64,000 nt of DNA from a virus: UHGV virus genome UHGV-0037280, one strand, 5' to 3'. Each line of letters starts with the position of its first letter. The stretch's first letter is position 1. Positions 2,802-29,282 of this stretch are shown here, in pieces. The position numbers and the translations under genes are program-made. The notes below the pieces were generated by a model, which saw nothing but the letters and a program-made list of their open reading frames with translations, searched no databases and was not told where the DNA came from.

Positions 2802-3161
2802 TTAAATCTGCTCGCTGAGCTTTTGCTTCAGCAGATAACCTTCCAGCGGCCAGATTTTCTCAATGGCGTTCTTACGGGCCACCTTACGGCCAATCTCCGC
2901 GTCGAAATTTTCAGGGCTGGCACAGGCGCTTTCCCCGGTAACAATGAATCCATTGCACAGCACCAAGACACAGATGGTCAGGCTACGCGTAGAGGGATGA
3001 ACAGACAGCACCTCACGAACGCCTTCGTGCGCAGCGCGAATGCCGTCAAAAGCTGTGAAATAATGCTCTTCGGCAATCACACTCTCGATGTGACCAGGAG
3101 TCAGGCGTGGTGCTGTTTTGCCTTTGGCCAGAATCTCTTTTTCAATTTCCATATCGGACAT
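2802..3161 (-). CDS. Hypothetical protein (119 aa)
   Basis: ORF track; no recognisable motif. Confidence 0.5.
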   Translation of the reverse strand: MSDMEIEKEILAKGKTAPRLTPGHIESVIAEEHYFTAFDGIRAAHEGVREVLSVHPSTRSLTICVLVLCNGFIVTGESACASPENFDAEIGRKVARKNAIEKIWPLEGYLLKQKLSEQI

Positions 3162-3172
3162 AGTTTTTCCTT

Positions 3173-3424
3173 TTAGTTACCGCTGATAGCACGGTTGTAA
3201 TCATTAACGTTGCGATTCTTCCTGTTAATCCCCTTCAGCATCGTTTCTGTATCGAGGATATACGCTGGCAGATCATCAAAATATTCATTGCTAAACTCTG
3301 GCATTCTGCACATAAATGCACTTTTGGGGGCAGGGTGGTTAACCTTTGTCGGCGTCGGCGTTAAATTCGCTGATCGACTCCCGGAGCAACCGCTGAGTGT
3401 CAGCAGGAATGCGCTGGCGAACAT
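3173..3424 (-). CDS. Putative lipoprotein (lipobox LTLSGC); alternative start at 3505
   Basis: Signal-like MFASAFLLTLSGCSG from internal Met; overlaps 3' end of the upstream gene in another frame, so boundaries uncertain. Confidence 0.4.
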   Translation of the reverse strand: MFASAFLLTLSGCSGSRSANLTPTPTKVNHPAPKSAFMCRMPEFSNEYFDDLPAYILDTETMLKGINRKNRNVNDYNRAISGN

Positions 3425-3761
3425 TACCCGCCGCAACCAGTTGTTTCTGAACTTCAGCTTTTCGTTCCATTTGCCTGTCAGCATATTTGGCTTGTTCTGA
3501 TTCATTTTTCACTTCCTGGCTGTGAAAATGTTGCTCTGCTTTGTTCATCGTCTCAATGGTCTGGTTAAGATCCATTATTGACTTATCACGTTCCTTAACA
3601 GCCTGATCAAGACTGCCAATTTTCTCCATGGCTTGCTTTAGCTGATGACGTTCCCATGCAAACCCAGCACCAACAAGTGCGCAAATCAGAACAAGAACAC
3701 CAGTAGCAGCAAGTTTCTCCTTCAAAGACAAAGCTGTTTTTAACGTAGAAAAGAATGACAT
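3339..3761 (-). CDS. Membrane-anchored/periplasmic protein with coiled-coil region
   Basis: Start chosen at Met10 (MSFFSTLK) because AGGAGG lies 6-11 nt upstream; N-terminal hydrophobic segment. Confidence 0.6.
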   Translation of the reverse strand: MSFFSTLKTALSLKEKLAATGVLVLICALVGAGFAWERHQLKQAMEKIGSLDQAVKERDKSIMDLNQTIETMNKAEQHFHSQEVKNESEQAKYADRQMERKAEVQKQLVAAGNVRQRIPADTQRLLRESISEFNADADKG

Positions 3762-3800
3762 GTCTTCCTCCTGAAGAAAAATTATCAATGAAGTCCTTTG

Positions 3801-4589
3801 TTACTGTGCCGCTTTGTTTAATTCATCAAGAACAGAATCAGGAACCAAAGCGGCAACTGCGCTGGCTGTGCTGACCTTATTTGCTGATGCTTCCGCAAGC
3901 GCGGTACCGATAGCATGGTTATAAGCAGTTATGGCTACGTTGGCGCTTTCATTCGCTCGTTCATACTGCTGTTGTAACGCAGTTGTGGGCGCTGTTGTCT
4001 GGTTGAAAACAACCCCAAACTGTTCAGTTGCTACTTTCAGAGATTCAATTTGCTCTTCTGTTAGTGCTGGTGGGGGAGTGGCAGTGCCGCCGCCTGAACC
4101 AGAGCCTGACGAGCTTCCTGAGCCAGTGTTAAGGGTCTGGTTAATCTCCCCCATAGCAGCGACTAAACTTGATGTATTAAGCGCGTTTACAGCGTCCTCA
4201 AGCGATTTAGTAATAGTCACATCACCAATGGCAATAGAGATCGGCAGTTCTGATACTTCTCGCTCATTAGCACGACAGTAAACATCCCAACCAATATCGA
4301 GTTGAAGGAGCATTGACAGATCAGCATAACCAGCCAACAGGTCCGCGTGCTTAGTTGCCAGTTCTCCAATGTTCGTTAAGCCGGTTGTGGTTGTTCTGAT
4401 CGTTGAAACATAGCTGGTAATAGTGTCGGGATAGACAATTGTATCCAGAATTAATCCGGTCAATTCTTCTGCAAGCAGTTTTGCTGTGTTAGCACTGTTT
4501 CGTGCCGATGTTATGGCACCAGGTGTTTTCATCCCACCGGCGGCGGCCAATTTTTTATATGCGGATAACTGGTAGTCTTTTTCCAGCAT
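3801..4589 (-). CDS. Hypothetical protein with Gly/Ser-rich linker
   Basis: Start at MLEKDYQL with AGGAG 6 nt upstream; GSGSSSGSGSGGG linker. Confidence 0.6.
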   Translation of the reverse strand: MLEKDYQLSAYKKLAAAGGMKTPGAITSARNSANTAKLLAEELTGLILDTIVYPDTITSYVSTIRTTTTGLTNIGELATKHADLLAGYADLSMLLQLDIGWDVYCRANEREVSELPISIAIGDVTITKSLEDAVNALNTSSLVAAMGEINQTLNTGSGSSSGSGSGGGTATPPPALTEEQIESLKVATEQFGVVFNQTTAPTTALQQQYERANESANVAITAYNHAIGTALAEASANKVSTASAVAALVPDSVLDELNKAAQ

Positions 4590-5335: not shown

Positions 5336-6233
5336 GCACTGGAAAAACATTACTATTTATAAACTTTCTCGTGAAGCGGATCTGACCGACTTAGAAGATA
5401 AAAAGAAAATGATCCTTTTCACGCCATGCGGTAGTCAGGATATGGCCAAGTTCGGTTTTGTATCTCCATTTGGTGATAATTCCGAAGTTATCGCTATGCA
5501 TGGAAATGGTTTTATCCTTGTTGAAGCAAAGCGCGAAACAAAAATCCTTCCCCCGCCGGTTATCCAGCGAGCTATTCAAGAAAAAATTGAAAAACTCGAG
5601 CAAGAACAAGCGCGTAAACTGAAGAAAACAGAGAAGGACTCCCTGAAAGACGAAGTTCTGCATTCTCTTCTGCCACGGGCTTTTTCAAAGTTTTCTGTTA
5701 TCCAGGCGATCTACGACGGTTCAACTAAACGTATCTATATCAATGCCAGCGCGCGGCAGGCAGAGGATATGCTCGCGCTTATGCGTAAATCTCTGGGTTC
5801 TCTTCCTGTTGTTCCCCTAAGTGTTGAAAATCCCATTGAATTAACGCTGACCGACTGGGTACGTGATGGTAGTGCTCCACAGGGATTTCAAATGGGGGAT
5901 GCGGCAGAACTTAAGGCAGTGCTTGAGGATGGCGGTATTGCCCGAGTGAAAAAGCAGGATTTGGGAAGCGATGAAATTTCCACACACCTGGAAGCTGGCA
6001 AGCTCGTTACTAAGTTGGCACTCGACTGGCAGAACCGCATTAAATTTACACTGGACCATAACTTCAGCCTTACCAGCGTCAAATTTGCGGATGAATTGCT
6101 TGAGCAGAACTCTGATATTGATAGTGAAGATGTTGCGCAGCGACTGGACGCAGATTTCTTCCTGTTGACCAGTGAAATTTCGTGCCTGGTTGATGCTCTG
6201 GTAAATGCCCTTGGTGGAGAGGCTAAGCAGTGA
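5328..6233 (+). CDS. hrdC: RdgC-like recombination-associated protein
   Basis: Strong RdgC-like stretches [66 protein letters not shown]. Confidence 0.85.
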
Positions 6234-8818
6234 AAGAGCTGTGCTATGGATCTGTTTGCAGCGGAATTGAAGCCGCGAGTATTGCCTGGGAACCGTTGGG
6301 TATGCGTCCGGCGTGGTTTGCTGAAATCGAGCCTTTTCCATCTGCCGTTCTTGCGCACCGCTGGCCCCATGTCGCCAACCTTGGCGACATGACAAAACTT
6401 GCCAAAAAAGTCCTGGCTGGGGAAATCGAATCCCCTGATGTGCTCGTCGGGGGTACGCCTTGTCAGGCATTCAGTATCGCGGGCTTACGTGGTGGGCTTG
6501 ATGATGAACGCGGCGCGCTAACTTTGAAGTATGTGGAGCTTGCAAATGCAATTGACGACAAACGGTCTGAGTCCTTCCTCAAACCGACAGTTATCGTCTG
6601 GGAAAATGTCCCAGGAGTCCTGTCATCGGCAGATAACGCCTTCGGATGTTTCCTTGCCGGATTGGCTGGAGAAGATGCGCCATTTGAACCAGGTGATCGA
6701 CCTGAATCAGGAAAAAGTAACGCGTTCTGGCGGTGGGATGGCAAAACCGGTTGCCATGCTCCAAAGTGGCCGCAGTGTGGTTGTATTTATGGACCGCAGC
6801 GAAAGGTGGCCTGGAGAATCCTTGATGCCCAATACTTCGGAGTGGCACAACGACGCCGACGCGTGTTTGTTGTCGCAAGTGCTCGAACAGACCTCGATCC
6901 CGCAACGGTACTTTTTGAGTTCGAAGGCGTGCGCCGGAATATTGCGCCGAGCAGAGGCGAGGGGAAGGAAGTTGCCGGAAATGTTGGAAATGGCATTAAA
7001 AGCGGGAGCCATTGGGATAACCCTGTAAATCCGCACCCGACACTTAACCAGTCACACAATACTGGCGGGATCGGCGCAAGTAACCAGGAGATTTTTGCGC
7101 AGCGCGGAAGTGGGCTTGTTGGTGCTTATCGAATGGTTGCATTTGGCGAATATGCTGATGATGAGACTGCTTCTACTGTCAAGGCCAGAGATTTTAAAGA
7201 TGCAACCGATTTAGCAGTTTTCAGTAGTACTGGTGCTGGTATTTGGCGTGAAGGTGCAGGCACTCTTCGTGCCAGAGCACAAGAAAGTCACGAACATCTG
7301 GCAGTGATGGCTATTCATGGAACACAGGATCCTGATGTTAATTGTGAATTGGCACATACTATTGGTCGTAACCATGGTCAAGAAAATGCAGTCGTAGCTT
7401 TTTCCTGCAAAGATTATGGACAAGATGTTTCTATTGAATGTTCTCCGACTTTACGATCTGGTAATACTGTTAATAGCAATCCAAATGCAGGATGCCCACC
7501 AGCTGTTGCGTATTCGCTACAACATGCACAAATTGGGCGAAAAGATGATGCTGGACCGCAGGGTAAAGGGTGGCAAAAAGAGATAAGTTTCACTCTTGAT
7601 TCCCGCGCTACAGCTGACGCCGTTGCGTTATCTTTTGGGGGGCAGAAAAGTATTGAAAAAGGCGAATTAGGTGATAATGGTTACTTACCTCATATGATGA
7701 GTGTTCGCCGTCTTACCCCTATCGAATGTGAAAGGCTGCAAGGTTTTCCTGATGGGCATACGTTGATCCCGACGGAAAAGCGTAAAAAAGTTAATTCAGA
7801 TGAACTGGTATATCTTCGCAATCACTATCCAGATTTAAGCGAAGAAGAGGCCGCGATGCTTGCAGCTGACGGACCTCGTTACAAAGCGATCGGCAATAGT
7901 ATGGCGATACCAGTAATGCGCTGGATTGGCGATCGGATTACCAAGGCTGCATGTCGGCAGAAGGAAGGGAGTGAAACAAAAGAGCGAAAAGTTAAACCAG
8001 CGGCAGAATTCGAACGGTCCATATTCAAATGGGCTGGTGGAAAATTTGGTGTTCTGGAACAAATCTTTCGCTATTTGCCAGAAGGGAAGCGCCTGATTGA
8101 ACCTTTCGTTGGTGGCGGAGCTGTCTTCATGAATGCCGGATACCAGGAAAATCTGCTAAATGATGTGAATGCTGACCTGATTAACTTTTACAAGACTCTG
8201 CAACGCGAGGCGCATTCACTTATCACTCTGGCACATCGTTTCTTCCAGGACTACAACACGCAGGAAGGATACCTGGCAGTACGGAATGCGTTTAACAAAC
8301 AAGTCTATGATGATTTACATCGCGCAGCGGCGTTTTTGTTCCTGAACCGACATTGTTTTAACGGATTGACGCGTTACAACCAAGCCGGTGAGTTCAATGT
8401 CGGTTATGGGAAGTATAAAACTCCGTATTTCCCATTGCAGGAGATGGAAGCCTTCCTTGGTGCGGAAGGGCGTTCTGAGTTTGTATGTGGTGATTTTGCT
8501 GCGGTGATTGAAGCTGCCGGAGAAGGAGATGTCATCTTTTGCGATCCGCCGTATGAACCGCTCCCAAATACAGAGGGATTCACGAACTATTCCGGTCATG
8601 ACTTTAAGTTTGAAGAGCAAAAACGCCTGGCGTCTCTGTTGACGGATGCTCATCGCCGAGGTGCAAAGGTTCTCATTACTAACAGTGGCGCGCCAAACAT
8701 CAGAGAACTTTATCAGGACAGTGGCTTCAGAGTGGAACCTCTTTTTGCCAGACGTTCTGTGTCTTGTAAGGGGGACACTCGAGGTGTTGCTCATGACGTT
8801 ATAGCAATATTGCTCTAA
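6230..8818 (+). CDS. dmt: Bifunctional-type DNA methyltransferase: N-terminal C5-cytosine MTase-like domain fused to C-terminal Dam-like N6-adenine MTase
   Basis: GTG start overlapping hrdC stop; motifs [12 protein letters not shown] and ENVPG (C5 MTase); FKWAGGK and DPPY (Dam-like) in C-terminal third. Confidence 0.85.
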
Positions 8819-8825
8819 TAAATTT
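8809..8825 (+). promoter_or_regulatory. C1 operator (perfect ATTGCTCTAATAAATTT) overlapping a -35/-10 promoter
   Basis: Exact consensus; TTGCTC at 8811-8816 and TAATAT at 8833-8838 with 16-nt spacing; partial inverted half-site follows. Confidence 0.65.
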
Positions 8826-9002
8826 ATTAGTGTAATATCGCCTCAATGAATCGTGATTTATAGAGCGATTTAGCTGTTAGCCGCGACAGGCGCGGCGGCA
8901 AGTATGGCGGGGTAGTGACTCCTTCCCCCTCATGACGCCGAGTTGCCAGGTTGACCATACGCCTAAGTGGCAACACCGAAGTGCGTTACGAGCTTCCAGT
9001 TT

Positions 9003-22442: not shown

Positions 22443-23140
22443 AGATTGCTTTAGTTTTTCGCTCTGGTGGTGACTATAACGCTTCCGATGTGCAGTGGCT
22501 GGTTAATCAACTGCCAAAAGGCTATGAAATTATTTGCCTGACAGACCTGAAGCGTTTACATGTACCTGGCGTCAAAGTTGTCCCATTGATCAACCAGTGG
22601 CAAAAGTGCCGTGGCTGGTGGGCGAAAATCGAGTTGTTCCGACCGGATATAACCGATGATCTGTTCTATCTGGATTTGGACACGGTTATTGCCGGTGATA
22701 TACGCCCAATCCTAGAGCATCCACCAACCAGCTTCACCATGCTTAGGGATTTTTACCATCCACAATATCGTGGCAGCGGTGCCCTGTGGATACCAAATAG
22801 TGTTAAAGCGCATATCTGGAGTTCATTCTGGCAAGATCCGGAAGGTTGGATTTCTCGTTGTGTCACTACTGAGTGCTGGGGTGACCAGGGGTTCTTACGA
22901 AAGGTTATGGGCGATGATATACCAGCATTTCAGGATCTGTATCCAGGATGGTTTGTAAGTTACAAGGCCGATGTTGTGGAACCTGGTTCAAAATATGCGA
23001 GCGCGCGTTACTCCAGGGGGAATGGGGCATTACCAAAAGACTGCCGAATAATCTTTTTCCACGGCAAACCGCGACCTCGCGAAGTGTCAGAGGATTGGCT
23101 TCCCCTTATCAGCTCATTTTTTGAGCGAGAATCAGAATAA
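22439..23140 (+). CDS. Hypothetical protein with DXD-like motif (possible nucleotide-sugar transferase)
   Basis: 233 aa; LDLDTV motif. Confidence 0.45.
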
Positions 23141-23221: not shown

Positions 23222-23440
23222 ATGTGGCCATTCCGACGGAAATATCACTACTGGCTGATCGCCTTTGTTACGCCGACCGGCGGTATCAGGCATGTCATCA
23301 CCAGGTATCGCAACAAGAGACTCACCTTAGCCAGAATTTTACAGGCTGCCATAGGTGAGGGACTGGATACAAATTGCGTAGTCCTTCCTCCTTCATACTT
23401 AGGAAAAATGACCGAAGCACAAGCTAATACGGAACTTTGA
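23222..23440 (+). CDS. Small hypothetical protein (72 aa)
   Basis: ORF track only. Confidence 0.35.
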   Translation: MWPFRRKYHYWLIAFVTPTGGIRHVITRYRNKRLTLARILQAAIGEGLDTNCVVLPPSYLGKMTEAQANTEL

Positions 23441-23441
23441 A

Positions 23442-24704
23442 ATGATCACTTCAGCACAAAACCAATCAATCGAAAATGTATCTATCCCTGACGTCCTGAA
23501 TGCCGGTATCCCGGCCATTATCCAGAACATCCGGGCCGCGCAACGCCGCGTTAGTTGTGATGACCTCACAGCGCGTTTTTTTGATAATGCGGTTCAGTCA
23601 GCGGAGATGCTTCACGCACAGCTTATTGATGTTTATAACGCAGAAGCTGATAGCCATAACTCCCTGGTAGATGCAGCTGAAAATATGCAGTTGGATCTCG
23701 GTCTGAAGGGTAAAGAAATTGAAGAGCTTCAGCTACAAATTGAACATTTGAAACGCCAGCAACAGGACGCGATCGACGATGCGACGCATGACGCCAACCA
23801 GCGTGCTGATAATGCCGAACGTATAAGCATTGAGCTGGAAACAAAACTCAATGAAATGACCGCGATGGTTGAACTGCGGAACTCACAGATTTCAACGCTA
23901 AAATCTCAATATAAAGAGATCATGAAACTTGATCCTTTTAACCTTGAGAAACGCTATAACAAAGCTAAAAGCGAGCGACAGGAACTGCGTAAGCAGGTCG
24001 CCGACCTTAACCAACAGCTCAAAAAAACTATTAAAGATGCAAGCGAAGCGCGCGTGGCATTTGCTAATAAAAAAGCAGAGGTTACCGCGCTGGTTAATGA
24101 GAATGCCAAATTTGCGACGCTCAAGAAGGAAATGTATGGCATTACTGAGCGCCGTTTCCCTGCAAGCAAACTTCATCCGACGTTAGGGCAAATCTCCTTC
24201 TTCCCGCGCCTCCTGGCTTATGGGATCTCATCGCCTAAAGAGTTCAATAACGAGCGTCCTTATATCGTTTCTAAGCTGGACTTTGCTTATCAGTTCTGCT
24301 GCGACATGGGCTATGCCATTGATATCCGGATCAACGAATGGTTGATGCCAAACTTCCAGCCGTTGGCCATTTTCCGCGAGTTCCAGCCGGAAGGTTGGGT
24401 AGAGTTCTTCCATGAATTGATCTGTAAAGAGATGGAAAGCCGCCGCCCGGAACTGGTCCGTCGAGTTGAGTGGGCGCAAGAGGTTATGTTGGCAGAGGCA
24501 GAGCTGCCGTTCGAACCGGAATTTATTGATGATCTGGCAGCTAAAGGGCTGCATACCCTGTTTGATGTGGTTACCCGCCGTCATGAGCAGTTGGTTGTCG
24601 AATTGGGTTTAGAGGAAACAGCGGCAAGAAGACTTCTCGATGTTTGCTATGCACGTAGCGATGCATGGGAAAAAGAGAACGGCGGCACTATTTACGTTCG
24701 CTGA
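23442..24704 (+). CDS. Coiled-coil protein (420 aa)
   Basis: ATG 23442; long heptad-like E/Q/K-rich region in N-terminal half. Confidence 0.55.
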   Translation: MITSAQNQSIENVSIPDVLNAGIPAIIQNIRAAQRRVSCDDLTARFFDNAVQSAEMLHAQLIDVYNAEADSHNSLVDAAENMQLDLGLKGKEIEELQLQIEHLKRQQQDAIDDATHDANQRADNAERISIELETKLNEMTAMVELRNSQISTLKSQYKEIMKLDPFNLEKRYNKAKSERQELRKQVADLNQQLKKTIKDASEARVAFANKKAEVTALVNENAKFATLKKEMYGITERRFPASKLHPTLGQISFFPRLLAYGISSPKEFNNERPYIVSKLDFAYQFCCDMGYAIDIRINEWLMPNFQPLAIFREFQPEGWVEFFHELICKEMESRRPELVRRVEWAQEVMLAEAELPFEPEFIDDLAAKGLHTLFDVVTRRHEQLVVELGLEETAARRLLDVCYARSDAWEKENGGTIYVR

Positions 24705-24726
24705 CAGTTACAGTGTCACTTTTAAT

Positions 24727-24757
24727 GCTGGTGGAGTGCGCCCACCAGCATTTTTTC
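24727..24757 (+). terminator. Intrinsic terminator
   Basis: gctggtgg agtgcgc ccaccagc followed by attttttcg. Confidence 0.6.
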
Positions 24758-24775: not shown

Positions 24776-25282
24776 TTGAGTATTTTCAATAAACACGCAC
24801 ACCAGGAACGTCCGTATATCGTCATAGTTGATATTGATGGAACAATATCAGAGGCAACTGAAGACAGACTGCATTTGCTTCCGCCACCAGGTAAAGGTGC
24901 ATTAACAAAGGACTGGAACGAGTTTAATCTCGCCTGTGACACTGATACTCCCATAACTCCAGTTATTGATATTGTGCGCCAGTTATTTAACGTTTACACG
25001 GTCTGGTTTGTAACCGGGCGCTGTGAGATCGCAAGGGATAAAACACGAGCCTGGCTGCGGAAGTACGTAACAAACGGGGCTGAGCCTTTGCTATCTATGC
25101 GTCCTGCCACCGATGACAGAAATGACGGCCCAGCAAAGATTGATCTCCTTAAGAAAATTGGTCTAAGTAAAATTGCGTTCGCGCTGGAAGATAAGATTGA
25201 AGTGGCGCGTGTTTTCAGGAGGCACGGCGTGCTTACGTTAATGGTCAGGGAGTATGAAAACGCGCTTCTCCATCAACAATAA
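24776..25282 (+). CDS. HAD-superfamily phosphatase-like protein (TTG start)
   Basis: DxDGT motif VIVDIDGTI near N-terminus; AGGAGG 7 nt upstream of TTG. Confidence 0.55.
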   Translation: MSIFNKHAHQERPYIVIVDIDGTISEATEDRLHLLPPPGKGALTKDWNEFNLACDTDTPITPVIDIVRQLFNVYTVWFVTGRCEIARDKTRAWLRKYVTNGAEPLLSMRPATDDRNDGPAKIDLLKKIGLSKIAFALEDKIEVARVFRRHGVLTLMVREYENALLHQQ

Positions 25283-25298
25283 TTGCTCTAATAAATAT
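25282..25298 (+). promoter_or_regulatory. C1 operator (ATTGCTCTAATAAATAT)
   Basis: 16/17 match to consensus. Confidence 0.6.
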
Positions 25299-25476
25299 TG
25301 ATTTTTAAAGCAGAGGAAGTGAAAATAAAAACATGCCGCAAGGCGCGGCATGTATCCAATCAATCACAGGAGCTGAAAATATGAACACGGCATTCAAAAT
25401 CATTATGGCCGCGATCTATTTCTGGCTGTTCTCTATCACTTTTGGCGGCATCGTCGCACATGGGTAAGGGGGATGC

Positions 25477-26055
25477 ATGAAAGGCGAAGTGAAAGAGCGC
25501 GGCATGATTTTTAACGATGAGATGGTCCGGGCAATTCTTGGCGGGAATAAAACACAGACTCGCAGGATTGTTGAAGAAAAATTCTATGGACGGGCAGTGG
25601 CCGCAGAGTTGCTTGCCAAGCATTGTCCATATGGTCAACCGGGCGATCGTATTTGGGTTCGCGAAACCTACCGGGTACATGGCAAAGCGACGGACGTCGC
25701 AACGCTGGTTTATCGCGCAAGCGTGCGTAACTCCTGGACAGAACAAACGCACCGGGTTCCGGTCGAGGTTTGTAATAAACCAGTATCAGAAAAGTGGACG
25801 CCATCAATTCACATGCCGCGCTGGGCTTCGCGTATTTTGCTGGAAATTACCGACGTGCGTGTGGAACGGCTGCATGACATGAGCGAGGCAGATGCTAAAG
25901 CGGAAGGCGCATCTCCGGCGACGTACAAGATTACACCGCCGGAAGCTGTTTATCGCGTTGGTTTCGGTGATATCTGGCGCGGTATTTACGGGCAAGAGAA
26001 CTGGCTATCTAACCCGTGGGTATGGGTAATCGAGTTTAAGCGCATTCAGGAATAA
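25477..26055 (+). CDS. ASCH/PUA-like domain protein
   Basis: MVRAILGGNKTQTRR N-terminal pattern typical of ASCH-like folds. Confidence 0.45.
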   Translation: MKGEVKERGMIFNDEMVRAILGGNKTQTRRIVEEKFYGRAVAAELLAKHCPYGQPGDRIWVRETYRVHGKATDVATLVYRASVRNSWTEQTHRVPVEVCNKPVSEKWTPSIHMPRWASRILLEITDVRVERLHDMSEADAKAEGASPATYKITPPEAVYRVGFGDIWRGIYGQENWLSNPWVWVIEFKRIQE

Positions 26056-26058
26056 ACC

Positions 26059-26937
26059 GTGAGTATGCATCAAGTTGTCAGCTTTTCAGGTGGACGAACA
26101 TCGGCTTATCTCGTTCATCTGATGGAAGCAAAGCGAAAAGCTGGCGCTAGCGTCCATTTCATTTTTATGGATACCGGCTGTGAACATCCTCTGACGTATC
26201 GCTTTATTCGTGAGGTTGTGAAGTTCTGGAACGTACCGCTAACGGTGTTGCAGGTCGATATAAATCCAGAACTTGGGCAGCCAAATGGTTATACGGAATG
26301 GGAACCAAAGGATATTCAGACGCGAATGCCGGTGCTTAAACCGTTTATGGACATGGTTAAAAAGTACGGTACGCCATACATCGGCGGCGCGTTCTGTACT
26401 GACAGGCTAAAACTCACCCCTTTCACGAAATATTGCGATGACCATTTTGGGCGAGGGAATTACATTACATGGCTGGGTATTCGTGCGGACGAACACCGCA
26501 GGCTGAAACCGAAACCGGGCGTCCGGTATCTTGCAGAGCTGTCAGATTTTGATAAGTCGGATGTTATCCGGTGGTGGCGAAAACAACCTTTTGATTTGCA
26601 AATCCCGGAGCACCTAGGGAACTGTGTTTTTTGCATCAAAAAGTCAACGCAAAAGCTGGGGCTTGCATGTAAAGACGAACCTGGTCTGATGCGGGTTTTT
26701 AATGAACTGGTTACAGGTAAACACGTCCGGGATGGTCACCGAAAGACAAATAAAGACGTTATGTACCGTGGTCATCTGAGCCTTGACGGGATTGCCAGAA
26801 TGTATGCCGACAGCGACTACAGAAATTTGTATCAGGCGATGGTGCAAGCCAGGCGATTCGATACCGGCTCGTGTTCAGAGTCATGTGAAATCTGGGGTGA
26901 TCAATTGGAGTTGAAATTCGAAGAGGTGGTGGCATGA
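26059..26937 (+). CDS. PAPS-reductase-like PP-loop ATP pyrophosphatase family protein
   Basis: SFSGGRTSAYL PP-loop motif at N-terminus; C-terminal Cys cluster CSESCEIWG. Confidence 0.7.
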   Translation: MSMHQVVSFSGGRTSAYLVHLMEAKRKAGASVHFIFMDTGCEHPLTYRFIREVVKFWNVPLTVLQVDINPELGQPNGYTEWEPKDIQTRMPVLKPFMDMVKKYGTPYIGGAFCTDRLKLTPFTKYCDDHFGRGNYITWLGIRADEHRRLKPKPGVRYLAELSDFDKSDVIRWWRKQPFDLQIPEHLGNCVFCIKKSTQKLGLACKDEPGLMRVFNELVTGKHVRDGHRKTNKDVMYRGHLSLDGIARMYADSDYRNLYQAMVQARRFDTGSCSESCEIWGDQLELKFEEVVA

Positions 26938-27638
26938 CAACCAAAATTAACTATCAGGCACTACGTGAGATAGCAAAACAGGCAACACAGGGCGAATGGG
27001 TCGCGTTTATTTCGACGGGTACAGGTACGTATGCTGTGCATACGCCCGGTGATAAACGATGTGAAGATGTTATCAAATGGACCGGCTTTGATGGGCTGAA
27101 AAACGCAGAGAACAACGCTCGTTATGTTGCCGCATTCAACCCAAAGGTTGCACTGGAGCTACTTGGTGAAATTAAGCGCCTGGAGGACACAAATATTGAT
27201 GCTATGTGCCGAATAGCACCGCTTGAGACTAAGCTCGCGGCGCTGGTGGCAGAGAACGCCGGGCTGAAACACGCAATGGCCGTAACTCTTGAGCATGTGT
27301 CGGTCACGGATGCAGGGCAGGCTGGTGTTGCTGCAATGATTATCAACGATGCCCTACACCACAGCGAAACTCCAGCTACCGATGCTTTTCTGGCTGAAAT
27401 TCGTGCGGAAGCACGCAACGAGGGGATTAACTATACCGCCAGCCGTCTTGCTGCTGCGTTCAATCACGGATTTATCAATAAGTCTTTGCGTGAAGTTTTC
27501 GACGTTACACGCATGATTTTGTCAGCGAAAGAAGAGTTGGCTAATGAAGCGCATCCGATTGATGGCCTGTCTGGTGAATATGCGGAGAAATCCCTTGAAG
27601 AATGGGCGGAACAGATTCGCAAAGGAAGCAGCCAGTGA
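26934..27638 (+). CDS. Ead/Ea22-like prophage protein, paralog 1
   Basis: N-terminus INYQALREIAKQATQGEW; shares C-terminal module DAFLAEIRA with 27922 gene. Confidence 0.55.
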   Translation: MTTKINYQALREIAKQATQGEWVAFISTGTGTYAVHTPGDKRCEDVIKWTGFDGLKNAENNARYVAAFNPKVALELLGEIKRLEDTNIDAMCRIAPLETKLAALVAENAGLKHAMAVTLEHVSVTDAGQAGVAAMIINDALHHSETPATDAFLAEIRAEARNEGINYTASRLAAAFNHGFINKSLREVFDVTRMILSAKEELANEAHPIDGLSGEYAEKSLEEWAEQIRKGSSQ

Positions 27639-27925
27639 ATATCGACACGACAATAACGATCGATACGCTCCTAAATACCGGTCTGGCACTTCTCGGTTGG
27701 CTTTACATCATGTCCCGTACATGGCGATGGCTGGGTTCCATTTTCCTAAAACAGTGGAAAAAACGGCGCAAACAGGAACTACGCCAGAAGGCATTAGAAG
27801 CGTTCTATGACGCATTTGAGCTTAGCCGCATTGAACCAGGTACAACAGCCAGGATAGCGACAAAAGGCGACCTGATGATAGTGATGTTCCGACAGGAGAG
27901 AGCAGAGAAAGGGGAATCAGCATGA
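27635..27925 (+). CDS. Small membrane protein (GTG start)
   Basis: AGGAAG 8 nt upstream of GTG overlapping preceding stop; one hydrophobic helix. Confidence 0.4.
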   Translation: MNIDTTITIDTLLNTGLALLGWLYIMSRTWRWLGSIFLKQWKKRRKQELRQKALEAFYDAFELSRIEPGTTARIATKGDLMIVMFRQERAEKGESA

Positions 27926-28590
27926 AATTTTCCAAATTTTCTGAGTTGGTGAATCGTATTTTGTCCAACAACCACAGCCATCGTCGCGATATGGATGTAA
28001 CGATCGTTGTTCATTCGCCTGGCAGCATTGGTTCAACACCCTCAGTTGAAGTTCAGTCAATTCACGCTGGTTTTGATTGGGATTCCGGGAAAGTGCTGAT
28101 TTTCCCAGCACAGCCACTGACCACTCTAACACCAGAACAGATTACTGATATTACTGATATTACTGATAGTGTGCGCAAAGGTCAGTCCTGGCACGCATAT
28201 CAGGAATACAAGAAGCATAAAGAGCAGTTGGAAAAATTATCGATTGAACTTGATGCCGCAAAACAGCGCATTGCAGAGCTGGAGGGTAATTTCACGGCGC
28301 TGGCAGCGGAGAATGCGGGGCTAAAGGCGATATGTGATGACCGTCGCAGGTTCATCATGAATGGGGTGCAGATGGGTTATATCAAGGTGCCAGCAGCGGA
28401 AACAGATCCAGACCTTGAGACAATTCGCATTGCTATATCACCACAAAAGCCCATTCCAGCCACCGATGCTTTCCTGGCTGAAGTACGGGCGCAGGGGGTA
28501 GAGATGTTTGCTGACCATCTGTTGTGCCCAGACCTTGATGACACTATCCGTGACTTTGCTGCCCAGCTTCGCAAAGGAGGCAACCAGTGA
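27922..28590 (+). CDS. Ead/Ea22-like protein, paralog 2 (contains 9-bp x3 tandem repeat)
   Basis: attactgat x3 at 28141-28167 encoding ITDITDITD; coiled-coil segment; shared C-terminal module. Confidence 0.55.
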   Translation: MKFSKFSELVNRILSNNHSHRRDMDVTIVVHSPGSIGSTPSVEVQSIHAGFDWDSGKVLIFPAQPLTTLTPEQITDITDITDSVRKGQSWHAYQEYKKHKEQLEKLSIELDAAKQRIAELEGNFTALAAENAGLKAICDDRRRFIMNGVQMGYIKVPAAETDPDLETIRIAISPQKPIPATDAFLAEVRAQGVEMFADHLLCPDLDDTIRDFAAQLRKGGNQ

Positions 28591-29282
28591 GCAAAATTAA
28601 CTATCAAGAACTGCGCGAGGCGGCGGAGAAGGCTACGAAAGGTAAGTGGGCTGTTGAATTCGACGATGAGATTTACTCCACTGACGGCATAAACCATGAG
28701 CAAATAGCTATGGTGTTCAGTGAAAACGAATCTCGTGATGCTGAATTCATCGCCGCAGCCAATCCGGCTACCGTCTTGGCGCTGCTGGATGAACGGGAAA
28801 GAAACCAGCAATACATAAAACGCCGCGACCAGGAGAACGAGGATATTGCGCTAACGGTAGGGAGGCTTCGCGTTGAGCTGGAAGGCAAAGACAGCAAAAT
28901 AGCCAATCTTACCGCCGAACGCGATGCTCTTCGTGAAGGTGAGATGGGCGACGCTAGGCATAGCAACACACGGGCCGCAGCTGATATCTACTTCCAACTG
29001 GTCGAGGAGTGCGAAATTCCTGCTGGCGGATCTCTGGTCGAGTACGTTGACGATATGCGCGAGAAGCTGGAAGCCGCAGAGAAGCGCATTGCAGAGTTAG
29101 AAAGTGGTTCTCAGGCACAAAAGTTAGTTGAAGCAATCATTGTTGCGATAGAAAACGAACAGGAAAGGCTTTTTGATGAAGATTACCTAATGGATTCGAA
29201 AGAATGCATTGACGTAATTCGTGAAGAAGTAAAGCGATGGAATGATTCCCGTGCCGCTGGCATTCGCATCAAAGGAGAGTGA
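28587..29282 (+). CDS. Ead/Ea22-like protein, paralog 3 (GTG start)
   Basis: N-terminus INYQELREAAEKATKGKW parallels paralog 1; AAGGAGG upstream. Confidence 0.55.
   Translation: MSKINYQELREAAEKATKGKWAVEFDDEIYSTDGINHEQIAMVFSENESRDAEFIAAANPATVLALLDERERNQQYIKRRDQENEDIALTVGRLRVELEGKDSKIANLTAERDALREGEMGDARHSNTRAAADIYFQLVEECEIPAGGSLVEYVDDMREKLEAAEKRIAELESGSQAQKLVEAIIVAIENEQERLFDEDYLMDSKECIDVIREEVKRWNDSRAAGIRIKGE

Follow-up and report, generated by a model that had tools for sequence, protein, structure and literature searches.

A lambda NinC orthologue in a P1-like phage-plasmid and its possible role in escape from phosphorothioate-based restriction

DndC, one of the PP-loop ATP pyrophosphatases of DNA phosphorothioation, holds a [4Fe-4S] cluster on three cysteines and carries sulfur on a cysteine dyad (PMC10853773). 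A 3'-phosphoadenosine-5'-phosphosulfate (PAPS) reductase-like phage protein has been linked to escape from such a system: when Piel et al. moved p0018 and p0019 of the Vibrio phage 44E38.1 into a Dnd-restricted phage, the recombinants plated on a Dnd+ host, and the authors described the anti-Dnd system as 'related at least in part' to the PAPS domain (preprint 10.1101/2021.05.05.442762). A 2026 article cites this Vibrio work as anti-Dnd and places PAPS-reductase homologues in Aca-regulated anti-defence operons (PMC13551039). Virome studies routinely count such proteins as sulfur auxiliary metabolic genes (for example PMC13369170), and in 2024 a paper still left open what these phage PAPS-reductase-like proteins do. 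Here we analyse a stretch of 64,000 nucleotides of viral DNA (UHGV virus genome UHGV-0037280; 'the window' hereafter), which carries an orthologue of the lambda gene ninC downstream of pap and of an allele of the P1 gene pmgT. We put at about one half the probability that its product is an ATP-dependent, Fe–S, sulfur-transfer-type DNA enzyme that is made without C1 and helps the element to escape phosphorothioate-based restriction.

The NinC orthologue and its proposed role

The gene at the centre of this analysis is the following.

26059-26937, plus strand: ninC orthologue, encoding a PP-loop protein of the PAPS-reductase superfamily with SFSGGRTS, Cys113, Cys189-x2-Cys192 and Cys272-x3-Cys276.

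Translation may start at GTG 26059, with a Shine–Dalgarno spacing of 8 nt, or at ATG 26065, which fits the N-termini of homologues. Judged by sequence, the product is orthologous to lambda NinC (Nin 290) along its full length: the two share 80% identity over residues 3-287. Identity to the NinC of Stx phages is 90–94%, again over the full length, and the product matches PHROG 33262 (E 7e-92) and PHROG 424 (E 3e-91). Both the PP-loop SFSGGRTS and the C-terminal cysteine cluster noticed in a first-pass annotation of this DNA lie within the open reading frame 26059-26937. Single-sequence searches with NinC, and with the ASCH-fold protein encoded upstream of it, returned only near-identical enterobacterial sequences, and profiles of diverse phage homologues were used.

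The NinC family comprises about 1,570 representatives at 50% clustering. Ser10, Gly12, Ser15, Cys113, Cys189, Cys192, Cys272 and Cys276 are kept in 95–96 of 96 sequences (95 full-length representatives and the window protein), and the nucleotide-binding loop, DTGxE, GIRxDE and the five cysteines are near-invariant across NinC sequences of 27–55% identity. The PP-loop reads S10-G11-G12-R13-T14-S15, with threonine in place of the usual aspartate of SGGxDS/T. NinC looks like an ATP-using enzyme, because it keeps an intact SGGxxS loop where CysH has SSSFG and adenosine-5'-phosphosulfate (APS) reductase has SFSGAE.

The AlphaFold model of NinC is confident (predicted local distance difference test, pLDDT, 83; predicted template-modelling score, pTM, 0.84) and places the C-terminal CxxxC on a disordered tail, residues 266-292. 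Its best Foldseek matches are APS and PAPS reductases (E ~1e-5; TM-score 0.36–0.50). Among family models, NinC passes Pfam PAPS_reduct (PF01507; 36.9 versus 22.5 bits) over the N-terminal ~70 residues (6-72) only. The hidden Markov model classification proposed in the first-pass annotation (DndC/SspD-like, CysH-like or other) spoke against CysH and DndC, with SspD as the nearest named model. The CysH equivalog PRK02090 of NCBIfam scores 21.7 bits against a cut-off of 154, with residues 5-82 aligned, and the DndC equivalog TIGR03183 scores 17.7 bits against 290.4; the PADLOC DndC model matches the N-terminal half only (E 4e-4). The best defence-model match is SspD (PADLOC PDLC02782, a model without a curated threshold; E 1.4e-13, profile positions 2-121 of 277). 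Across 44 diverse family members, SspD is matched by all 44 (best E 2.8e-20), BrxP by 23 and DndC by four; CysH PRK02090 is weakly matched by 19. The NinC profile also matches a solved protein of 270 residues, PDB 21fy chain C ('PptA'; E 8e-5), including the CxxCxK motif; literature searches found no paper describing 21fy 'PptA'.

The most direct functional lead comes from p0018 of 44E38.1, the only family member with a phenotype. Residues 3-282 of the window NinC align with residues 1-280 of p0018 at 55% identity (E 4e-109), and the two proteins have in common the PP-loop, FC(T)DR, GNCVFCIKK and DTGSCSESCE. We propose an anti-restriction role for NinC because this 55%-identical PAPS domain helps to give the anti-Dnd effect. 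Fusions of NinC homologues to adenine methyltransferases occur in both orders and involve three families, Dam (PF05869), D12 (PF02086) and MT-A70 (PF05063). In five viral contigs (L098, L100-L103) NinC and Dam form a single uninterrupted frame of 500–519 codons, and in three lambda-like contigs (L070, L071 and L074; about 5450-6007) the end of a Dam gene overlaps the start of ninC. Two other candidates were set aside: JSS1_004, considered as a 'phage PAPS reductase that evades Dnd', is a kinase, and P0328, a NinC fused to MT-A70, is a protein distinct from the Vibrio p0018.

Mechanistically, NinC would have a DndC-like cysteine layout, with three cysteines holding a [4Fe-4S] cluster and the CxxxC dyad carrying sulfur; sulfur transfer is proposed because this layout matches that described for DndC. 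The enzyme would use ATP to adenylate a nucleic-acid substrate and would then transfer sulfur or a related group to it. Expressed early, before C1 builds up, it may shield incoming or replicating phage DNA from Dnd- or Ssp-type restriction. The earlier suggestion of an anti-defence or modification activity, rather than sulfur metabolism, thus gains support for NinC from its 55% identity to the Vibrio PAPS domain, from SspD as the nearest model and from the methyltransferase fusions.

Several observations weigh against this proposal. The Vibrio effect came not from a solo NinC but from the joint transfer of two genes in exchange for four others, two of which were methylases. The similarity to SspD, DndC and BrxP is limited to the N-terminal ~145 residues, and the DndC threshold is missed by far. 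Fe–S binding is deduced from cysteine conservation only, and the SGGRTS loop is without the usual aspartate. Neither DndD/E nor SspB/C with a cysteine desulfurase was found in the open reading frames between 21750 and 34736 or beside NinC in other phages. A methyltransferase lies within 6 kb at 16 of 89 NinC loci, and NinC is near five of 75 Dam loci; these loci are close relatives and make a weak test, and our argument uses the fusions, not neighbourhood statistics. No Dam domain is fused to the window NinC itself and no methyltransferase gene adjoins it; the nearest one, a D12-class homologue, is ~17 kb away. Finally, lambda ninC and P1 pap are dispensable in laboratory hosts, and P1 pmgT is dispensable by CRISPR interference; this too was counted against the proposal, and it fits an accessory role while being silent on mechanism.

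A more specific and tentative version, possible but doubtful, is that solo NinC proteins, including that of lambda, act as 'forgers': they would mark phage DNA with phosphorothioate, or with some other sulfur or adenylyl group, and Dnd- or Ssp-type systems would then read it as self. Such a NinC would be an Fe–S, ATP-dependent enzyme that borrows sulfur-relay and DNA-targeting partners from the host, and where it is fused to a Dam-type methylase, as in some phages, the fusion would serve as a DNA tether. If this were true, thousands of virome genes called as 'cysH/PAPS reductase' auxiliary metabolic genes would be anti-restriction genes. The sulfur annotations of NinC relatives are probably wrong because of the homology to an anti-Dnd protein, the nearness to phosphorothioate writers and the methyltransferase fusions.

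NinC is among the last lambda genes without a function, and our literature searches found no study of solo NinC function. The proposal gives a hypothesis that can be tested for NinC in P1 and lambda, using E. coli that carries cloned dnd or ssp clusters.

The setting of ninC also varies. Chi-like virulent phages (L016, Salmonella phage FSL SP-030, 2977-4334) have a NinC homologue followed by a nucleoside 2-deoxyribosyltransferase, with a ThyX-like gene nearby; this is a nucleotide-metabolism setting, unlike the lambdoid context.

The host element and the neighbouring genes

We assign the window to the P1/P7-like phage-plasmids because the DNA from ~24600 to ~25900 (pmgS/shtB-pap-operator) is 97–98% identical to P7, SJ46 and P1, because its annotation matches that of P7 and P1, and because it holds 16 C1-operator-like sites (at most three mismatches) in 64 kb, against 0.24 expected by chance. 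The features of the operon that contains ninC, and of the gene preceding it, are as follows.

24724-24752, plus strand: intrinsic-terminator-like hairpin between pmgS/shtB and pap, with an 11-bp stem, six GC pairs and a T-run.
24776-25282, plus strand: pap, P1 Pap, a HAD-type polynucleotide 3'-phosphatase domain; TTG start, AGGAGG Shine–Dalgarno sequence.
25282-25298, plus strand: C1 repressor operator ATTGCTCTAATAAATAT, with 16 of 17 bases as in the consensus (one mismatch).
25283-25326, plus strand: positions equivalent to the predicted P1 sigma-70 promoters P2pmgT and P1pmgT, mapped by offset from the P1 annotation and overlapping the operator.
25331-25353: hairpin in the operon leader, between operator and mini-ORF, with a perfectly conserved 10-bp stem and a T-run on the minus strand.
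25381-25467, plus strand: 28-codon hydrophobic mini-ORF MNTAFKIIMAAIYFWLFSITFGGIVAHG, with an AGGAG Shine–Dalgarno sequence 7 nt upstream.
25477-26055, plus strand: ASCH-fold protein, allele of P1 pmgT / P7 upf86.8 (PHROG 874), with a GxKTxTRR motif and Glu143.
25801-25911: recombination crossover zone inside the ASCH gene.

The operator occupies the same position as the annotated P1 OpmgT (former Op88) and P7 Op(hea), and a promoter scan gave only a weak consensus match here, which overlaps it. Operator and promoter (P1 OpmgT) head an operon of the mini-ORF, the pmgT allele and ninC. C1 control of the PP-loop gene from 25282-25298, as claimed in the first-pass annotation, is in agreement with this arrangement, and the hydrophobic mini-ORF that it had placed before the ASCH-like gene is present with its AGGAG. 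The mini-ORF protein is 100% conserved in six P1-like sequences (P1, P7 and four others), with one synonymous difference in the DNA. The SJ46 record labels it 'membrane protein', and those of P1 and P7 leave it out; it was not found outside P1-like DNA. Its stop lies 9 nt before the start codon of the pmgT allele. No gene is evident on the minus strand at the leader hairpin.

Pap has 168 residues and, on the evidence of its sequence, is a stand-alone 3'-phosphatase domain of the polynucleotide-kinase type and a core P1 gene product. The HAD-type DxDGT signature picked out earlier (VIVDIDGTI, residues 16-24) holds up: motif I, DxDxT, can be read directly as D19-I-D21-G-T23, and the protein passes Pfam HAD_PNKP (PF25109) with 46.3 bits against a cut-off of 27.6 (E 6e-12). 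Pap matches PHROG 415, 'polynucleotide kinase' (E 2e-56), and the phosphatase part only of PHROG 505 (positions 156-292 of 295). The P-loop 5'-kinase domain of a bifunctional Pnkp is absent from its 168 residues, and among solved structures the phosphatase module of Pnkp1 is closest to it in sequence. The strong hairpin at 24724-24752 suggests that pap is not simply co-transcribed with pmgS, contrary to the 'sht operon' annotation of P7.

The product of the pmgT allele adopts, according to its predicted structure, an ASCH fold. It scores below the threshold of Pfam ASCH (PF04266; 15.1 versus 21.2 bits, E 0.039), which four of nine diverse homologues match (best E 1.9e-6). In an AlphaFold model built from 43 sequences the core has a pLDDT of 76–88, and an insertion, residues 65-117, stays below 50. 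The top nine Foldseek matches of this model in the PDB are all ASCH/DUF984 proteins (E 2e-4 to 1e-3), with 3s9x, YqfB (9kyh/9kyf), PH0355 and EF3133 among the top matches (TM-score on target 0.5–0.72); they include E. coli YqfB with bound N4-acetylcytidine (ac4C; E 3e-4, TM-score on target 0.7). A sequence search of the PDB with the protein and its profile returned nothing relevant, and fold comparison alone worked. The ASCH-like N-terminus seen in the first-pass annotation is thus borne out by structure prediction, although the Pfam score is sub-threshold.

By alignment, the pmgT allele keeps the Lys/Thr/Arg/Glu set that is catalytic in the N4-acylcytidine amidohydrolase YqfB. Its GGNKTQTRR belongs to the 'GKTR' group of YqfB-type octapeptides, and Lys25, Thr28, Arg30 and Glu143 are invariant in nine ASCH homologues of 33–68% identity. 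Hhalign pairs these residues with K21, T24, R26 and E74 of YqfB (E 6.6e-4, probability 27%), where mutagenesis showed the Lys–Thr–Glu triad and the oxyanion arginine (K21, T24, E74 and R26) to be essential or near-essential (PMC6972931). The low probability of this match, and the use of a manually typed YqfB sequence, count against the mapping; the residue numbering agrees with PMC6972931. A 2026 preprint reports removal of ac4C from tRNA by all 19 ASCH proteins that it tested (bioRxiv 2026.02.27.708502). Because of the ASCH fold and the retained YqfB catalytic residues, we regard the protein, with low confidence, as a probable small hydrolase whose substrate would be a modified base or nucleoside. 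It shares 44% identity with P1 PmgT, begins at the same position and is identical to it over the N-terminal 22 residues; PmgT is re-annotated here as an ASCH-fold putative hydrolase. Elsewhere PHROG 874 is widespread and stands alone in the early region, in phages of Salmonella, Pseudomonas, Yersinia, Vibrio, Salinibacter, Ochrobactrum, Sulfurimonas and Proteus.

A junction inside the ASCH gene accounts for the arrival of ninC. Four contigs that encode Doc (L018-L020 and L089) are 95.8% identical to the window from 25801 through ninC to 26974, and apart from this stretch their ASCH proteins share only 56% identity with that of the window. Because P7-type identity runs to 25911 and donor-type identity begins at 25801, the crossover is placed between these positions; on this sequence evidence, ninC arrived with the 3' third of a donor ASCH gene by homologous recombination, and the ASCH gene is a chimera. 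The donor-type contigs are probably rearranged P1-related elements rather than lambdoid prophages. Directly upstream of the ASCH gene they encode, as in L018 (3478-5994), a phosphatase of the NinI type and an HNH endonuclease resembling PdcA; Doc lies downstream.

The wider surroundings of the operon contain the following genes.

8021-8773: D12-class N6-adenine methyltransferase homologue; it shares 48.6% identity with the methyltransferase domain of a NinC–D12 fusion protein.
21750-22442: ppp, NinI-like Ser/Thr protein phosphatase (Ppp).
22439-23140: pmgQ-like glycosyltransferase.
23222-23440: pmgR.
23442-24704: pmgS (pmgS/shtB).
26934-27638, 27922-28590 and 28587-29282: three tandem Ead/Ea22-like paralogues, 3' of ninC.

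After pmgS the order is pap, C1 operator, mini-ORF, ASCH gene, ninC and the three Ead/Ea22-like genes; further accessory genes follow, with Doc last. The PP-loop gene had been described as lying next to a protein phosphatase; Ppp is in fact 2.3 kb upstream, with three genes between. Pieces of the Ead/Ea22-like paralogues are reordered in contigs L018-L020, which points to heavy shuffling of the accessory region. Two overlapping C1 operator sites in opposite orientation (8809-8836) follow the D12-class methyltransferase homologue.

Alternative explanations

The ASCH neighbour raises the question of whether NinC modifies RNA instead of DNA, for example by tRNA thiolation that tunes translation, since ASCH proteins remove ac4C from tRNA. 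We consider this unlikely: NinC has no RNA-binding extension of the THUMP, PUA or TilS C-terminal type, its fusion partners are DNA adenine methyltransferases, the sole phenotype in the family is escape from DNA-based restriction, and the ASCH–NinC linkage is confined to P1-related elements.

NinC could also be non-catalytic and bind Dnd or Ssp proteins of the host, for example DndD/E, IscS or SspB/C, as a decoy or inhibitor. Its resemblance to the N-terminal half of SspD, DndC and BrxP, the lack of partner genes of its own and the frequency of mimicry among anti-defence proteins would all fit, but near-invariance of the nucleotide-binding loop, DTGxE, GIRxDE and the five cysteines at 27–55% identity is typical of an active enzyme and leaves a decoy distinctly improbable.

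Similarly improbable is a role in phage replication or recombination, to which the company of the gene points: it lies in the lambda nin region and, in several phages, beside NinB, a DnaB-like helicase, DUF3987 or Rap, and one record is annotated 'NinC-like recombination protein'. Such a location is, however, equally typical of anti-restriction morons, and in Stx phages and the window NinC stands among accessory genes of the ea/ead type. The protein has no recombinase or nuclease fold, and dispensability of the lambda gene also speaks against this role.

That Pap, the ASCH protein and NinC form one nucleic-acid repair or modification pathway was the coherent three-gene cluster of nucleotide chemistry envisaged in the first-pass annotation, and it now appears quite improbable. 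The three genes are adjacent on the same strand, all three families have nucleic-acid-related chemistry, and in two backgrounds, with ASCH proteins that share only 56% identity, the ASCH gene directly precedes ninC at the same distance. The three do not form a single transcription unit: the end of pap (25282) is the point at which the next operon's operator and promoter start, and the terminator-like hairpin precedes pap; pap is a unit separate from the ASCH–ninC operon. In PLSDB, pap occurs in 654 plasmids and window-type ninC in 75, making ninC a variable accessory gene of roughly one in ten P1-like plasmids; neither P1 nor P7, both of which have pap and pmgT/upf86.8, carries NinC. Neither neighbour lies beside NinC in the lambda, Stx, Vibrio, T1-like and chi-like phages examined, and no PAPS-reductase-like gene adjoins the ASCH homologues in eight other phages. 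A conserved ASCH–NinC module was likewise rejected: the pairing is confined to the P1-related, Doc-encoding contigs, and the constant spacing is the recombination footprint of the shared ASCH 3' end. We conclude that mosaicism, and not a common pathway, put pap, the ASCH gene and ninC side by side.

Weakest, and very improbable, is the auxiliary metabolic reading stated in PMC13369170, by which NinC would reduce PAPS or APS as CysH does and so raise sulfate assimilation in the infected host: NinC passes PAPS_reduct, its top Foldseek matches are APS/PAPS reductases and 19 of 44 relatives weakly match CysH, but the CysH score is far below its cut-off and covers residues 5-82 only, the TM-scores reach just 0.36–0.50, the SGGxxS loop differs from those of CysH and APS reductase, the ECGLH tail is absent, the gene consistently lies among early, replication, recombination or anti-restriction genes, some homologues are fused to DNA methyltransferases, and SspD is the nearest named model in every one of the 44. 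The earlier view that the protein is not one of housekeeping sulfate assimilation therefore stands, with SspD and BrxP as nearest models and 55% identity to the Vibrio PAPS domain.

Comparison with known systems

The locus itself is ordinary: its families are known, and the arrangement is already in public plasmid records, two of which contain it in full at 99.4% identity, with 13 covering at least 80%. Its value is that it connects lambda NinC and P1 PmgT to testable biochemical roles.

The window pap is 97–98% identical to that of P1 and P7, where annotators labelled it 'acid phosphatase'. Pap shares the HAD_PNKP domain and DxDxT with T4 and bacterial Pnkp and is without their kinase or ligase partner. 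The ASCH protein has the beta-barrel fold, the GKTR octapeptide and an aligned glutamate in common with YqfB and the ASCH ac4C amidohydrolases, but it is about twice as large as YqfB, with a variable, low-confidence insertion of ~55 residues (65-117). P1 PmgT, which is encoded at the same locus from the same start, carries a label, 'putative morphogenetic function', that was assigned without a test.

NinC shares with CysH and assimilatory APS reductase the PAPS_reduct core, DTGxxxPET-like and Arg-loop-like motifs and a flexible, Cys-bearing C-terminal tail; it differs in its SGGxxS loop and C-terminal motif, and identity is 19–22% over ~160–185 residues. With SspD, DndC and BrxP, the PP-loop ATP pyrophosphatases of phosphorothioation, it has the N-terminal domain of the PAPS-reductase superfamily in common, and its conserved cysteines match the pattern of three cysteines and a dyad in DndC. 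In contrast to these proteins, NinC is phage-encoded rather than part of a defence island and has no DndD/E, SspB/C or BREX partners; it aligns over approximately residues 5-148 only and is much shorter than DndC or BrxP. The Vibrio p0018 is a PAPS–Dam fusion, of which the window NinC corresponds to the PAPS part only. The closest counterparts are the NinC proteins of lambda and Stx phages (PHROG 424 / 33262), which have the same length, motifs and cysteines; lambda ninC lies in the nin region and Stx ninC in the early-left region, whereas the window ninC lies in a P1-type phage-plasmid under C1 control.

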